Positions 10,850 to 19,758 of a stretch of DNA of 64,000 nt are shown piece by piece (position 1 is the stretch's first letter; every line of letters begins with the position of its first letter). The notes below the pieces were generated by a model, which was not told where the DNA came from, did not search any database, and was given only the letters and a program-made list of their open reading frames with translations. This DNA comes from an uncultured Candidatus Actinomarina sp. (GTDB lineage: Bacteria; Actinomycetota; Acidimicrobiia; Actinomarinales; Actinomarinaceae), in contig CACPJC010000001.1 in NCBI GenBank assembly GCA_902634185.1, positions 96,001 to 160,000 of the forward strand, written 5' to 3'. The translations under genes were made by a program, and so were the position numbers.

Positions 10850-11578
10850 ATGAATCCCGTAAGTTTTGGAACAAAATTAAAAACACTTTTTATGTTTCCA
10901 TTATTCCTAATTATATTTAGCTTTTTAATAATTCTTATAATACTTACGGTCTTTATTCCAAATGGAAAGTTATTAGCTACAAAATATTACAAATTTTTTG
11001 GATGGCTAGGATTAAGAATGGTTGGGATTAATTTAACCGTTTCTGGTTTAGAAAATATTGATACCGACAAAAGTTACGTTGTAGTATCTAATCACCCATC
11101 AACTCTTGATATATTTACCCACATTTATGGGTTACCAATATCTGTAAGATTCCTAACTAAAACTGAACTTTTTCGTATTCCTTTCTTTAGTAGAGTATTA
11201 AAGATTCTGGGTCTTCCAAGAATTGATAGAGGTAGTTCATCATTAGATCTTGATAAAATTAATAATTCGATACAAAGTGTTATAGATGATGGTAATTCAA
11301 TAATGATATTTCCAGAAGGTAAAAGAAGTAATCAAAAAAATCTTTTGGAATTTAAAAAAGGAGCTGCACATATTGCTAAAAAATTCAATTTATCTGTTCT
11401 GCCAGTTGTTACACACAATGCCCATAAATTAATGATTAAAGGTAAAGTTTGGTTTTTATCTGGTGATATACATATGGATGTTTTGAAACCTATTGACGAT
11501 ATACATAAGTATGAAGTTGATGAATTAACAAATCTATTTTTTGAAAAAATAAATGAGGTTTTAACTACGAAGAAATGA
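10850..11578 (+). CDS. plsC: 1-acyl-sn-glycerol-3-phosphate acyltransferase
   Basis: NHPSTLD (HX4D), FPEGKRS, FKKGAAHIA. Confidence 0.88.
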   Translation: MNPVSFGTKLKTLFMFPLFLIIFSFLIILIILTVFIPNGKLLATKYYKFFGWLGLRMVGINLTVSGLENIDTDKSYVVVSNHPSTLDIFTHIYGLPISVRFLTKTELFRIPFFSRVLKILGLPRIDRGSSSLDLDKINNSIQSVIDDGNSIMIFPEGKRSNQKNLLEFKKGAAHIAKKFNLSVLPVVTHNAHKLMIKGKVWFLSGDIHMDVLKPIDDIHKYEVDELTNLFFEKINEVLTTKK

Positions 11579-12100
11579 TTCTATATAGCTGAAGAAGTCT
11601 TTACTTTTGGAATCATCAGTTAGTAAATCATCAACTTTATCTTCTTCATTAAATAAATAAAAATTTTCGTATACGTTTAATCCATAATTGCTAAGTTGAG
11701 CGCCAAGTAAATTAAATGCATTCTTTGCATTGTTGCCCTTACCGTCAACTGAACTAATAATTGCAACATCCTTATCTTTAAACAATTCATTGTAAGAATA
11801 GTTATCGAAACTTATTGAAAGCCAATCGAGTAAATTTTTCAAATGGGAGACATAACCTCCATTGAAAACAGGACTAAATATTATTATTTTAGAAGTTTCA
11901 ATTAAATCATCTCTTACTTTTATGACATATTCAGGTTGTTCATCATTGTAATCTCGGAGAAAAGGAACATTTTCATAAAAATCATCATATAGATTACAAG
12001 ATATCTCTAAATCACTTAGGTAGCTATTTACGATACCTGCGGCTTTATTATTTTTTGATTCTGGTCTTGTTCCAGCCGATAAAAGCAAAATTTTTGACAT
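11561..12100 (-). CDS. NADPH-dependent FMN reductase family flavoprotein
   Basis: GTRPESKN, SPVFNGGYVSHLKNLLDWLS, FKDKDVAI. Confidence 0.85.
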   Translation of the reverse strand: MSKILLLSAGTRPESKNNKAAGIVNSYLSDLEISCNLYDDFYENVPFLRDYNDEQPEYVIKVRDDLIETSKIIIFSPVFNGGYVSHLKNLLDWLSISFDNYSYNELFKDKDVAIISSVDGKGNNAKNAFNLLGAQLSNYGLNVYENFYLFNEEDKVDDLLTDDSKSKDFFSYIESFLRS

Positions 12101-12130
12101 AGGTTAATTATGTTATAAGATACTTTTTAT

Positions 12131-12463
12131 ATGGATAGTAATGTTGAAAATTTTGCAAACCTAGACATAAGAGTTGGTCAAATTTTATCAGCTGAAGTTT
12201 TTGAAGAGGCAAAAAAACCTGCATACATTTTAAAAATAGATTTTGGAAATGATATAGGTGAAAAAAAAACAAGTGCTCAAATTACAAATTATCAGCTAGA
12301 TGAACTGATTGGAGTTAGATGTATTGGAGTAATCAATCTTGGTGACAAACAAATTGGTCCGATAATTAGTCAATGTTTAATTCTTGGATCGATCAACGAT
12401 AATGGGGATGTTTTACTGCTTCAACCCAGTCCAGAAGCTGATTTAGGTGACAAAGTTTCTTAA
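12131..12463 (+). CDS. csaA: CsaA/Trbp111-like tRNA-binding OB-fold protein
   Basis: FANLDIRVGQI, KKPAYILKIDFG, TSAQIT, NLGDKQIGP.SQCLILG. Confidence 0.88.
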   Translation: MDSNVENFANLDIRVGQILSAEVFEEAKKPAYILKIDFGNDIGEKKTSAQITNYQLDELIGVRCIGVINLGDKQIGPIISQCLILGSINDNGDVLLLQPSPEADLGDKVS

Positions 12464-12933
12464 CTAACCAAAGAGTCAAACTTCTCAACATTAAAAGTAC
12501 CGACCCTTTTATAAATTTTATCTCCATGTTTGTCTACAAGAACATATGTTGGTGTATATTTAAGATTATATTTTTCAATAGTCTCAAGATAATCTTTTTT
12601 TGAAGCATTTACGGATACAATTGGTATTTCTTCATGCTTTTTTTTGAATTCATTAACTATGAATTTTGAAGCAGTACAACCTAGTCAATAGTCAGAGTAA
12701 AATTCAATTATTGTATATTCAAAGTTTGAAAAATTATGATTATCAACAACTAAACCTCGCTTTGAATTAAATAAATACAATCCAAAAAAAGAACCTATTA
12801 CAAAAAAACTTAATATATATAGAACGATTGAAGGCTCAAATGCGATAAAAAATATCACTAAGCCAAATATCCAGCCCAAAGGTAAGTAAATAAGGCTGTA
12901 TCTATTGATAAACTTTAAAAGAATTTTTTTCAT
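12460..12933 (-). CDS. Predicted selenoprotein: membrane-anchored thioredoxin-fold protein with UxxC motif (157 aa, Sec83)
   Basis: In-frame TGA at 12685-12687 within IIEFYSDY-U-LG-C-TASK; frame stays open for 74 more codons to TAA at 12460-12462 and includes YNLKYTPTYVLVDKHG (Trx cis-Pro region); two N-terminal TM helices; SECIS-like hairpin downstream. Confidence 0.85.
12647..12665 (-). promoter_or_regulatory. Candidate bacterial SECIS element
   Basis: mRNA AAUUCAU-AGUUA-AUGAAUU: 7-bp stem with GU at loop positions 2-3; 26 nt between UGA and loop. Confidence 0.65.
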
Positions 12934-12968
12934 ATATTTACATTCTTTTCACAAATTATACTTTAATT

Positions 12969-13379
12969 ATGGATCTGATTAATAAACTCAGAGATAATGG
13001 TAATCGTATTACTGAGTCTAGAAGTACAATTTGTAAAATTCTTGAGGAAGCAGGTCATGAGCATTTTACAGCAGATGAACTATACAAACTAGCCTTAAAC
13101 AGGGTTCAAGACATTGATTTAGCAACCGTATATAGAACACTAGAAATTCTTGAGTCATTAGATCTCGTAGAACATTCACACCAGCAACATGGTTCAGGAA
13201 TTTATTATCTTAAAAACCAAGAAAGAACTGCTCATATAGTTTGTAACAGTTGTAAAAAGATTAAAGACATTTCAAAAAACGTCATCAACGCTGTCGAAAA
13301 AATTATTGCAAAAGAATCAAATTTTAATTTAATTGACAATCATTTCGTGTATGCGGGAGTTTGTAATAAATGTAAATAA
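12969..13379 (+). CDS. nur: Fur-family regulator, Nur (nickel uptake regulator)-like
   Basis: ATVYRTLEILE helix, CxxC pairs; LVEHSHQQHG and DNHF match the Streptomyces Nur Ni-site segments (LVSHAHLGHG, MKHF) as recalled; adjacent to ECF Ni/Co genes. Confidence 0.75.
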   Translation: MDLINKLRDNGNRITESRSTICKILEEAGHEHFTADELYKLALNRVQDIDLATVYRTLEILESLDLVEHSHQQHGSGIYYLKNQERTAHIVCNSCKKIKDISKNVINAVEKIIAKESNFNLIDNHFVYAGVCNKCK

Positions 13380-13386
13380 CTATTTT

Positions 13387-13411
13387 TATTGCAAATTGAT
13401 TGCATTAAAAT
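13387..13411 (+). promoter_or_regulatory. Nur-box-like operator and -10 of leaderless cbiQ promoter
   Basis: TTGCAA-ATTGA-TTGCAT (13389-13405) fits tTGCaa-N5-ttGCAA; abuts TAAAAT (13406-13411), which lies 6 nt before the ATG. Confidence 0.7.
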
Positions 13412-13417
13412 ATTGTC

Positions 13418-14182
13418 ATGTATCCTACAAGCCACCAACATCATTTATCAATTCATGAAAATTCTGAATTAAAGAATATTAAACCCCAGCAAAAAGTATT
13501 AGGTTGCTTTTTAATTGTTTTGTCTATTGCATTTTCTGATGTAAGAGATCTATTTCAAATATTCATGCATATATTTTTAGTTTTTTATATTTTATCACTG
13601 ACAAAAATTCCAACTAAAACTTATTTAAAGAGATTAACTTTAGATATACCTTTTATTTTATTTGCATTATTCCTTCCATTCCTTAGCAGTGAGAATAATG
13701 ACAAAATATTTGAAATTTTTTCATTTAATGTTTATCAAACAGGTGTAAATGATATGTTTACAATTTTATTCAAAGCAACTTTAGGTTTGACCGTTGGAAT
13801 AATTCTTACGGGAGTAACTTCAAGCATGGAAATAATTTATGGTCTCCAAAAATTAAAAATTCCAAATATCATTATTGCGATCATGTCCTTCACGATACGA
13901 TATATTGATGTATTCATTGATGAGTTCAAACGAGTTAAAATTTCAATGGCATCAAGAGGTTATGTTGAAAAAGGTTTAAAAACCTTAATACCTATTGCGT
14001 TTGCATCTGGAGCCCTATTAATTCGAGGATATGAAAGAGGTGAAAGAGTTTATTTATCCATGATATCAAGAGGGTTCAATGGAAATATAGATTTCAAATC
14101 TCGAAATTACGAAATTTCTAACAAATTTAACTTTTGTGTTATTTTATCAATCATAACTTTATTGTTGGACAAGATACTATGA
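13418..14182 (+). CDS. cbiQ: ECF Co/Ni transporter T component (CbiQ/NikQ)
   Basis: His-rich N-terminus, IPFILFALFLPF, RYIDVFIDE.KR...MASRG, RGYERGERVYLSMISRGF. Confidence 0.88.
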   Translation: MYPTSHQHHLSIHENSELKNIKPQQKVLGCFLIVLSIAFSDVRDLFQIFMHIFLVFYILSLTKIPTKTYLKRLTLDIPFILFALFLPFLSSENNDKIFEIFSFNVYQTGVNDMFTILFKATLGLTVGIILTGVTSSMEIIYGLQKLKIPNIIIAIMSFTIRYIDVFIDEFKRVKISMASRGYVEKGLKTLIPIAFASGALLIRGYERGERVYLSMISRGFNGNIDFKSRNYEISNKFNFCVILSIITLLLDKIL

Positions 14183-14925
14183 CTAAATATTTAGAAGTTA
14201 ATAATTTAAGTTATTCCTATCCAGACGGTCATGAAGCATTAAAAGATATAAGCTTTGATCTTGACAACAAAGAGTCATTGGCAATATTAGGGCCTAATGG
14301 TGCAGGAAAAACTACTTTGATTCTTCACTTAAATGGGATTTTAGGAAATCTAGACAAAGATATAAAAGTAAGTAATTTTGAATACACAGATGAAAATATC
14401 GCAGATATTAGAAAGACTGTAGGTGTGGTTTTTCAAGATCCTGATGATCAATTATTTATGCCAACAGTAATAGAAGATGTTATGTTTGGACCAAAAAATT
14501 TTGGATACAATGATACAGAATCTGAAGAACTTGCAATCGATGCACTAAAACAAGTTAATATGATTGATTTCTTAGATAGACCACCACACCACTTAAGTTA
14601 TGGACAAAAACGTAAAGTTGCTATTGCAAGCGTTTTAGCATCAAAACCAAAATTATTAGTTCTTGATGAGCCAGGATCAAATCTCGATCCATCATCTCGT
14701 AGGGATTTAATTGAAATACTCAATGATCTAGAAGTTTCAAAAATTCTTGTGACCCATGACTTGCCTATGGCATTAGAAATCTGTGAAAGAAGTATTGTTT
14801 TAAATGATGGAAAAATAACTCGTGATGACAATACATTAAATATTTTAAAAGATGAAACTTTTATGAAAAATAATAGACTAGAGCTTCCATATGGATTTGC
14901 ATTTCATCATTTAGGTGAAGAATAA
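14179..14925 (+). CDS. cbiO: ECF Co/Ni transporter ATPase (CbiO/NikO)
   Basis: GPNGAGKTT, FQDPDDQLF, LSYGQKRK, LDEP; likely ATG at 14179 overlapping the cbiQ stop (ATGA). Confidence 0.9.
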   Translation: MTKYLEVNNLSYSYPDGHEALKDISFDLDNKESLAILGPNGAGKTTLILHLNGILGNLDKDIKVSNFEYTDENIADIRKTVGVVFQDPDDQLFMPTVIEDVMFGPKNFGYNDTESEELAIDALKQVNMIDFLDRPPHHLSYGQKRKVAIASVLASKPKLLVLDEPGSNLDPSSRRDLIEILNDLEVSKILVTHDLPMALEICERSIVLNDGKITRDDNTLNILKDETFMKNNRLELPYGFAFHHLGEE

Positions 14926-19262: not shown

Positions 19263-19758
19263 TTTTTAACCACGTATTTTGAATAATTGTTTCCGCTATT
19301 ATTTTCTCTTTTTTATTTTTGATATCGATAATATGTTTTGACTGATTATATAAATTTTCGCGCAATTTATAAAGTTCTGATATCTCTTCTTTACCTTTTT
19401 TTACAAGTGGGCGCTCTGAATTTGAAATTCTTTTCCATAAATTTTCAAATGTATCTTTTAGATAAAAACTAAGTTCTGAATTTTTGACCTCATCTAGAAT
19501 ATGTGAGACTTCAAGAGAGCCTCCTCCAAGAGCAATTACGGTATCGTTATCTGGCAATGCTTGAAAAGTTTCAAGTTCAATATTACGAAAATATTTTTCA
19601 CCTTTTGTTTGAAAGATTTTATTTATACTTCCATATTTTTTTTCAATATTTTCATCTAGGTCAATTGTATTTGCATTTACTATCTGTTTTATTTTTTTGA
19701 GAATCGATGTTTTACCAGAACCCATGAATCCAACTAAATAGATATTATTCTGTTTCAT
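19249..19758 (-). CDS. aroK: Shikimate kinase
   Basis: VGFMGSGKT, DLD, GEKYFR, ALGGG, RPL. Confidence 0.93.
   Translation of the reverse strand: MKQNNIYLVGFMGSGKTSILKKIKQIVNANTIDLDENIEKKYGSINKIFQTKGEKYFRNIELETFQALPDNDTVIALGGGSLEVSHILDEVKNSELSFYLKDTFENLWKRISNSERPLVKKGKEEISELYKLRENLYNQSKHIIDIKNKKEKIIAETIIQNTWLKNEVI

Follow-up and report, generated by a model that had tools for sequence, protein, structure and literature searches.

A probable membrane-tethered thioredoxin-like selenoprotein of the published marine family Trx-like 3 in Candidatus Actinomarina

Does a short open reading frame (ORF) of an uncultured Candidatus Actinomarina sp. truly end at its TGA codon, or is this codon read as selenocysteine (Sec, U) within a longer gene? 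The question is raised by a locus in a stretch of 64,000 nucleotides (nt; hereafter the window) that spans positions 96,001 to 160,000 of contig CACPJC010000001.1 in assembly GCA_902634185.1, which consists of 16 contigs, totals 974 kb and is 83% complete. Coordinates below are those of the window unless a contig or locus is named. The original prediction, made from the sequence letters, had proposed a selenoprotein with two membrane helices, a thioredoxin fold, a U-L-G-C active site and a hairpin resembling a selenocysteine insertion sequence (SECIS). We consider, with a probability of roughly 0.93 and on the strength of sequence evidence, that positions 12460-12933 on the reverse strand are a real Sec-encoding gene, and that the membrane-tethered thioredoxin-like protein it specifies belongs to Trx-like 3, a marine family already in print. 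The integrity of the gene, its conservation, the pairing of Sec with cysteine (Cys), the Sec machinery of the genome and the conservation of the hairpin are established, and all reported checks of the UxxC selenoprotein reading were favourable. Both the observation and its interpretation are correct, but they amount to the rediscovery of a published selenoprotein family.

The 82-codon ORF (12685-12933, reverse strand) starts with an ATG at 12933 and ends with a TGA at 12685-12687. As the ORF list and the translation confirm, this TGA stands where the first Cys of a thioredoxin CxxC motif is expected. When it is translated as U, the frame remains open for 74 further codons, up to a TAA at 12460-12462. 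The whole gene (12460-12933, reverse strand) then comprises 157 codons plus the stop, and its product of 157 amino acids (aa) contains IIEFYSDY-U-LGCTASKFIVNEF. In this product the UGA would specify Sec83, with which the U-L-G-C active site begins, and the TGT at 12676-12678 (reverse strand) Cys86, the putative resolving cysteine. The stop codon overlaps that of csaA (12461-12463) by 4 nt, inside the palindrome TTAA. The continuation of the frame and this overlap had both been predicted, and both were recovered on translation. Across 12463-12684 there is no further ORF of at least 40 aa in that frame, and the read-through portion fills what had been an unexplained gap.

The genome carries the machinery for Sec: the search for selA, selB, selD and selC (tRNA-Sec) that the original prediction had proposed as a check found all four. 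The tRNA-Sec scored 74.6 bits against Rfam RF01852 and was called SeC(tca) by ARAGORN, while selA scored 373.9 bits. Directly after selA lies a divergent selB-like gene of 560 codons, which covers positions 2-572 of the 581 in the profile. The selD gene scored 371.4 bits and contains one in-frame TGA of its own. In this respect the genome matches those in the preprint 'Actinomarina, resolved' (bioRxiv 10.64898/2026.04.03.716425), whose main text states that each of the 84 complete genomes encodes selC, selA, selD and a divergent selB. The same text describes a Sec form of selD and about five selenoproteins per genome predicted by deep-Sep, mostly of uncharacterised families.

Under genetic code 4 or 25 the organism would read TGA genome-wide as Trp or Gly, and residue 83 would not be Sec. 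This possibility agrees with the Trp given at position 83 in all 17 full-length family entries fetched from public collections, but is excluded for practical purposes, because TGA terminates 170 of the 690 ORFs of at least 200 aa in the genome (TAA 416, TAG 104) and because, among the 39 tRNAs called by ARAGORN, the anticodon UCA occurs only in tRNA-Sec and tRNA-Trp has CCA. The ordinary use of TGA as a stop, which had been predicted, includes cbiQ within the window. Furthermore, no tRNA-Trp(UCA) and no widespread in-frame TGA in conserved genes were seen in the genome, and column 83 pairs with Cys, not with Trp, in distant homologues. A genome scan for read-through ORFs returned 403 candidates, mostly in antisense frames; a stricter filter left 50, recovered the thioredoxin-like gene and missed selD, so that the scan is uninformative.

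The Trp entries came from a word-indexed protein search with 65 matches, all of the same family; 17 of the 20 that were fetched are full-length members. These 157-aa entries (among P0002-P0060) all have Trp at position 83; other public entries end at residue 82. The Trp83 entries are likely table-4 (Mycoplasma-type) calls of TGA on short low-GC metagenome contigs. The suspicion that annotation pipelines truncate the gene was thus confirmed by the 82-residue entries, and other entries misread the codon as Trp. One further protein, P0066 (249 aa), joins the first 47 residues of the selenoprotein to an ABC-transporter permease (PF00528) and is probably derived from a chimeric metagenome contig.

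To trace the conservation of the TGA, 58 related genomes were searched in six frames; 33 of them are other members of the genus and 24 belong to other families of the class. An orthologue was found in 29 of the 33 other genus genomes, the four without one being 60-80% complete, and in none of the 24 genomes from other families. All 30 matches, this genome included, have exactly one internal TGA. The motif EFYSDY-U-LGCTAS is identical in 29 of the 30 orthologues, which range down to 51% identity, and every one of the 29 sequences in the codon alignment has TGA at the Sec column. Hence, the TGA is not confined to this assembly. The ratio of nonsynonymous to synonymous substitution rates (dN/dS; Nei-Gojobori, ratio of means) was 0.224 before the UGA and 0.233 after it, with 281 and 378 of the 406 pairs usable, respectively, after exclusion of pairs with saturated or near-zero dS. 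Purifying selection downstream of the TGA, another expectation of the original prediction, is therefore present. As the TGA is conserved and the two ratios are similar, we conclude that the part after the UGA is translated, under a constraint equal to that on the part before it.

These data refute the view that the gene is broken, i.e., that a nonsense mutation or an assembly error has reduced it to a membrane peptide of 82 residues, with a dead remnant on the 3' side. Gene calling with table 11 yields only the 82-aa ORF, and database fragments of this kind exist (P0062, P0063, P0068), but a TGA that all 30 orthologues share at one column and a dN/dS after the TGA that equals the one before it are at odds with decay. 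The string YSDYU moreover occurs 193 times among the independent reads in supplementary file 3 of a survey of the Global Ocean Sampling (GOS) data (Zhang and Gladyshev 2008, PLoS Genet, PMC2398784). In RNA libraries from four runs of four studies, contigs of three runs bridge the TGA unchanged, by at least 31 nt on each side; no variant was present at 12685-12687 in the contigs of the four runs, and the neighbouring differences at 12682 and 12688 are, by our reading, synonymous. The stretch occurs in 19 listed runs from 12 studies, all of them marine or seawater metagenomes, and six of these runs are RNA libraries. Since RNA libraries may contain DNA, they give only a weak hint of transcription, and stretches to which no contig aligned carry no information.

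One orthologue deviates in its active site. In genome G030 (L043:1501-1971, forward strand) the motif is U-L-G-F-A-A-S, with Phe in place of the resolving Cys. This could be a genuine monoselenol variant, or else a mistake in a metagenome-assembled genome of 72% completeness; the motif DYULGF has no match in supplementary file 3 of the 2008 survey (PMC2398784).

The gene had been presented as hidden and its family as poorly described, and here the original prediction was not borne out: Trx-like 3 has been in print since 2008. Zhang and Gladyshev (PMC2398784) described it as a family with a UxxC motif and weak similarity to cd02950 (e>0.001), and listed 212 selenoprotein sequences from 33 GOS samples and 183 Cys homologues, with an enrichment in marine samples (their Table 2). 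JCVI_READ_208383, which stands under '#Trx-like 3' in their supplementary file 3, is identical by eye to our 157-aa product, U83 included, and the last 37 residues of the product occur there eight times, in eight reads. The window protein accordingly belongs to this family, UxxC motif included. In its main text the 2008 paper assigns no host organism and does not use the words 'membrane', 'transmembrane' or 'Actinobacteria'; the main text of the 2026 preprint (bioRxiv 10.64898/2026.04.03.716425) does not contain the word 'thioredoxin'. We found no later characterisation of Trx-like 3 in the literature, and the papers retrieved on membrane-anchored thioredoxins and selenocysteine are non-bacterial by their titles. 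Modestly new are the Actinomarina host, the two-helix anchor with its N-x-Y-S motif, the covariation of the hairpin across GC extremes, the conserved pairing with a regulator of the Fur family and a possible flip of orientation between lineages.

An exhaustive protein search extended the family beyond the genus. It gave 208 matches at E <=0.001, among them proteins of about 160 aa that align over nearly their full length and combine an N-x-[YHF]-S motif, two hydrophobic helices and a thioredoxin domain. We aligned the window protein (P0001) with 31 relatives; 11 rows of this alignment (A2) are from the Actinomarina clade and 21 are others. At the Sec column, 17 distant members have CxxC and four have W. 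Positions N10, S80, C86 and P128 are invariant and S13 is nearly so. The expected pairing of TGA with Cys at position 83 is therefore seen in 17 distant homologues of the same architecture. The Pfam and NCBIfam models that match these proteins are generic thioredoxin models only. A phylum-wide six-frame search with A2 revealed members with the full architecture and one in-frame TGA in other actinobacterial families (G259, G173, G121 and G079), at 48-71% GC; most other matches of this search span the thioredoxin domain alone and are uninformative.

The match of the product to Pfam Thioredoxin (PF00085) straddles the TGA: it extends over residues 72-152 and scores 28.2 bits against a cut-off of 23.5. 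AlphaFold2 with A2 as input gave a model with a mean predicted local distance difference test score (pLDDT) of 90.5 and a predicted TM-score (pTM) of 0.81. In its N-terminal part the model has a helix at residues 2-11, followed by the predicted membrane helices 1 (residues 13-31; 12841-12897) and 2 (residues 36-57; 12763-12828). The thioredoxin-fold domain, assigned from PF00085, AlphaFold2 and Foldseek, spans residues 72-157 (12463-12720) and comprises strand 73-79, helix alpha1 at 84-99, strand 105-109, helix 113-121, strands 129-134 and 139-144 and helix 149-156; all these segments lie on the reverse strand. Sec83 is placed at the start of helix alpha1, the same place as the first Cys of thioredoxins. 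A Foldseek search of the PDB put classical thioredoxins on top (9ncl, 1v98, 2yzu; E ~1e-6, target-normalised TM 0.72-0.77).

With classical thioredoxins (TrxA; 2trx, 1v98, 9ncl) the protein shares the fold (Foldseek E 7.5e-7 to 1e-5, target-normalised TM 0.69-0.77), a redox motif at the N-terminus of alpha1 and the conserved proline (P128) before strand beta3. In contrast to them, its domain is four-stranded, without the N-terminal beta-alpha unit, and is fused to a two-helix membrane anchor. Assignment to the TrxA equivalog (TIGR01068) was ruled out at 28.8 bits against a cut-off of 96.8 and by the lack of W-C-G-P-C. A membrane-held thioredoxin-fold domain with CxxC or UxxC is also found in TxlA/slr1796, the DsbD gamma domain, TsoB and TlpA/ResA/DsbE. 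The corresponding matches were weak: NF038096 (slr1796), a model related to cd02950 (TxlA), at E 0.0067 and 16 bits against a cut-off of 140, the DsbD C-terminus at E 0.028, seleno_TsoB at E 0.0086 and dsbE at E 0.0046.

Downstream of the UGA, the predicted hairpin with a 7-bp stem and an AGUUA loop that starts 26 nt after the UGA was located at 12647-12665 on the reverse strand (AAUUCAU-AGUUA-AUGAAUU), on the alpha1 codons K-F-I-V-N-E-F. The bSECISearch criteria are a G in the apical loop and a loop 16-37 nt from the UGA; against criteria of this type, the distance of 26 nt and the G in the AGUUR loop agree. All seven pairs are kept in 30 of the 30 genus sequences, and pair 25-39 occurs as UA in 25, as CG in three and as UG in two of them. 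The AGUU loop bases are invariant in these sequences, and within the hairpin the codons for Phe, Ile and Val do not vary at their synonymous third positions either. Synonymous divergence (dS) was 0.74 over codons 84-98 vs 1.43 in the remaining C-terminal part. With eight pairs scored, the covariation score within the genus was reached by two of 500 shuffles.

In four actinobacterial relatives of high GC content, the homologous codons (K-P-V-V-D-G-L) contain CCCGU-GGUCG-ACGGG. We combined them with 19 of the 30 genus rows, the 11 omitted rows being identical or nearly identical over the stretch. In this extended alignment 99.4% of the cells pair, four of the seven pairs show double-sided changes (16 cells), and none of 500 shuffles reached the values for pairing, cell count or covariation. 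When the partner was shifted by 1-3 columns, pairing fell to 14-53%. Not significant were the number of covarying pairs, which 43 of 500 shuffles reached, and that of further pair types (432 of 500); moreover, independent events are few, since the four added sequences represent only two families. The covariation test that the original prediction had called for thus yielded a hairpin conserved in 30 of 30 sequences, with compensatory changes once the high-GC relatives are included. We regard it as a putative SECIS, well supported by conservation rather than by stability.

The SECIS of Escherichia coli fdhF is a hairpin just 3' of the UGA, and SelB binds the G-U of its apical loop. The Trx-like 3 hairpin likewise sits inside the coding region, a short distance 3' of the UGA, and has an invariant apical-loop G-U (AGUUR here, GGUCG in the high-GC relatives). 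Its stem, unlike that of fdhF, is nearly all A-U and thermodynamically weak, and no bulged U is evident in the sequence. The legend of Figure 7 in the 2008 survey also marks conserved loop guanosines (PMC2398784).

Hairpins were also seen in other selenoprotein genes. This genome contains a second one with a thioredoxin fold, at contig C5:13575-14033 (forward strand; locus L072:1354-1809). Its product of 152 aa has a lipoprotein-like signal (LLLLLSFCSSGS) and the motif WADY-U-GIC, and is nearest to the ResA/TlpA/DsbE models; WADYUGIC stands 106 times under 'Trx-like 1' in the supplement of the 2008 paper (PMC2398784). The hairpin of this gene, GGGAGG(A)-AGUUG-CCUCUC(U), has 7 bp and lies 16 nt after the UGA, and its AGUUG loop, of the same type as the Trx-like 3 loop, supports the Trx-like 3 hairpin. 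The selD gene is itself a selenoprotein gene (GAG-U-ACK; contig C7:19506-20429, forward strand, TGA at 19536), with a downstream hairpin that is richer in GC and has another shape. In other Actinomycetota (loci L052-L066) we observed many thioredoxin-like genes of the signal-peptide or lipoprotein type with an in-frame TGA, e.g. W-U-P-A-C and T-U-P-A-C, which have a hairpin on the alpha1 codons K-P-I/V-V-D-x-L with loops GUC or GUCGA. It seems to be a general habit of selenoprotein genes with a thioredoxin fold that the codons of helix alpha1 double as SECIS.

Several observations weigh against the Sec reading or its hairpin. The selB match of 208.3 bits lies under the NCBIfam cut-off of 242.25. 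The 71-nt fold has -6.9 kcal/mol and z = -0.04, with 85 of 200 shuffles folding as well or better, and the alifold energy is only -4.0 kcal/mol. Within the genus there is one covarying pair (eight-pair version), a count that 262 of 500 shuffles reached. Constraint on the protein and on the RNA is hard to separate, because the stem codons encode conserved residues. No Rfam match was obtained for 12400-13000 at E up to 10; Rfam SECIS models also found nothing in the genomes of the 2026 preprint, according to its main text (bioRxiv 10.64898/2026.04.03.716425). The active site is Y-U-L-G-C, unlike the W-C-G-P-C of classical thioredoxins. Finally, the case for selenium in the protein is made by sequence evidence rather than by labelling or a peptide.

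On which side of the membrane would the redox domain lie? The Lys/Arg-rich N-terminal helix (12898-12933, reverse strand) carries the N-x-Y-S motif (N10, S13) conserved in A2 and has four Lys or Arg residues (K+R) in the tail. All 11 Actinomarina-clade rows of A2 have 3-5 K+R in the N-tail, 0-1 in the loop between the helices and 1-3 after helix 2. By the positive-inside rule, these charges predict that both termini are cytoplasmic, and hence the redox domain as well, in line with the original prediction. We regard this orientation as moderately probable for the Actinomarina protein, with the positive-inside rule as its sole basis. The opposite placement is unlikely but a serious contender: the protein would be the same selenoprotein with its thioredoxin domain outside, acting as a TlpA/ResA/DsbE-like reductase fed via a CcdA-type membrane protein. 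Charges in 17 of the 21 other A2 rows are reversed: their N-tails carry 0-1 K+R and their inter-helix loops 1-4, so that these proteins are predicted to face outward. The domain also weakly resembles the C-terminal domains of DsbD and TsoB, and the genome encodes the evidently exported ResA/TlpA-like lipoprotein selenoprotein described above. Against an outward domain in Actinomarina stand the opposite charges in all 11 rows of the clade, the dsbE and DsbD matches far under their cut-offs (e.g., 16.6 vs 123 bits for dsbE) and the cytoplasmic-type thioredoxins that Foldseek ranked first.

A CcdA-type transporter (DsbD_TM/CcdA), on which the outward placement would draw, was found in 27 of 38 genus genomes, including the near-identical G027, and not in this 83%-complete assembly. 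The gene probably lies in the missing 17% of the genome. As the assembly is incomplete and the gene occurs in 27 of 38 genus genomes, CcdA does not discriminate between the two orientations. Unlike TxlA, DsbD, TsoB and TlpA/ResA/DsbE, all of which face outward, the Actinomarina protein has a predicted inward orientation, and it matches their models far below the family cut-offs. Membership in TlpA/ResA/DsbE was rejected, given the dsbE score and a charge bias that predicts an inward domain.

The charge patterns in A2 fall into two classes. A K/R-rich N-tail with an acidic loop occurs in the Actinomarina clade, P0072 and P0101, and more weakly in P0076. An uncharged N-tail with a K/R-rich loop occurs in 17 rows, in Cys and W forms alike. 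The two classes therefore predict opposite membrane orientations of the redox domain.

If the gene is decoded as proposed, tRNA-Sec and SelB would read UGA83 under the guidance of the 7-bp hairpin with the AGUUR loop 26 nt downstream. The protein would then act as a membrane-tethered selenol/thiol-disulfide oxidoreductase, which is the most likely chemistry. Sec83 would attack a disulfide or sulfenate of the substrate, and Cys86 would resolve the selenenylsulfide. If the domain is cytoplasmic, it could be recycled by the thioredoxin reductase of the genome with NADPH; the genome encodes TrxB (414.5 bits) and one classical thioredoxin.

The surroundings of the gene are conserved within the genus. 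The order acyltransferase, FMN reductase, csaA, thioredoxin-like selenoprotein, Fur-family regulator, cbiQ and cbiO (10850-14925) is present in 29 of 30 genus loci (L017-L046), the 30th being a short contig cut inside the selenoprotein gene, and identities of the neighbours in the syntenic block are as low as 44-50%. None of the four high-GC relatives (L048-L051) has a neighbouring gene in common with the window. The selenoprotein and Fur-family genes are divergent, with their start codons 35 bp apart, and share the intergenic region 12934-12968, for which the upstream regions of 28 loci were compared. This spacer contains the genus-conserved element AAGTATAAT / AAGTATATTATA, a -10-like box by eye. 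The element could represent overlapping -10 boxes in both directions, in which case the Fur-family mRNA would be nearly leaderless. A consensus scan found no promoter in the 35-bp spacer and no terminator, so that a promoter function of the element is an inference only. The regulator could not be labelled as Fur, PerR or Zur, with a best score of 92 bits against a cut-off of 220.

A wider picture may be drawn from these results, which we put forward tentatively and, taken as a whole, rate somewhat short of even odds. In it, Trx-like 3 would comprise two opposite orientations, with most relatives, in both Cys and Sec forms, facing outside and the Actinomarina anchor flipped so that the selenol is at the cytoplasmic face. 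In a sunlit cell that bears rhodopsin, the Actinomarina protein would be a membrane-proximal seleno-thioredoxin, controlled by the divergently transcribed Fur-family regulator that adjoins it throughout the genus, and would repair membrane proteins or lipids that have been oxidised. Its SECIS hairpin on the alpha1 codons would have been carried by compensatory changes between ~33% and ~70% GC.

The biological gain is small, as the sequence was printed in 2008 (PMC2398784) and the use of Sec by Actinomarina was reported in 2026 (bioRxiv 10.64898/2026.04.03.716425). In public annotation the gene is still cut short or given a Trp at its Sec codon, and the case demonstrates that a selenoprotein can be recognised by a first-pass reader from raw sequence. 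For marine genomes of low GC content, the hairpin could serve as the seed of a covariance model. Furthermore, a host and a membrane anchor are now assigned to a family that ranks among the ten most abundant of marine selenoproteins, and the predicted difference in anchor orientation between its lineages offers a testable hint.

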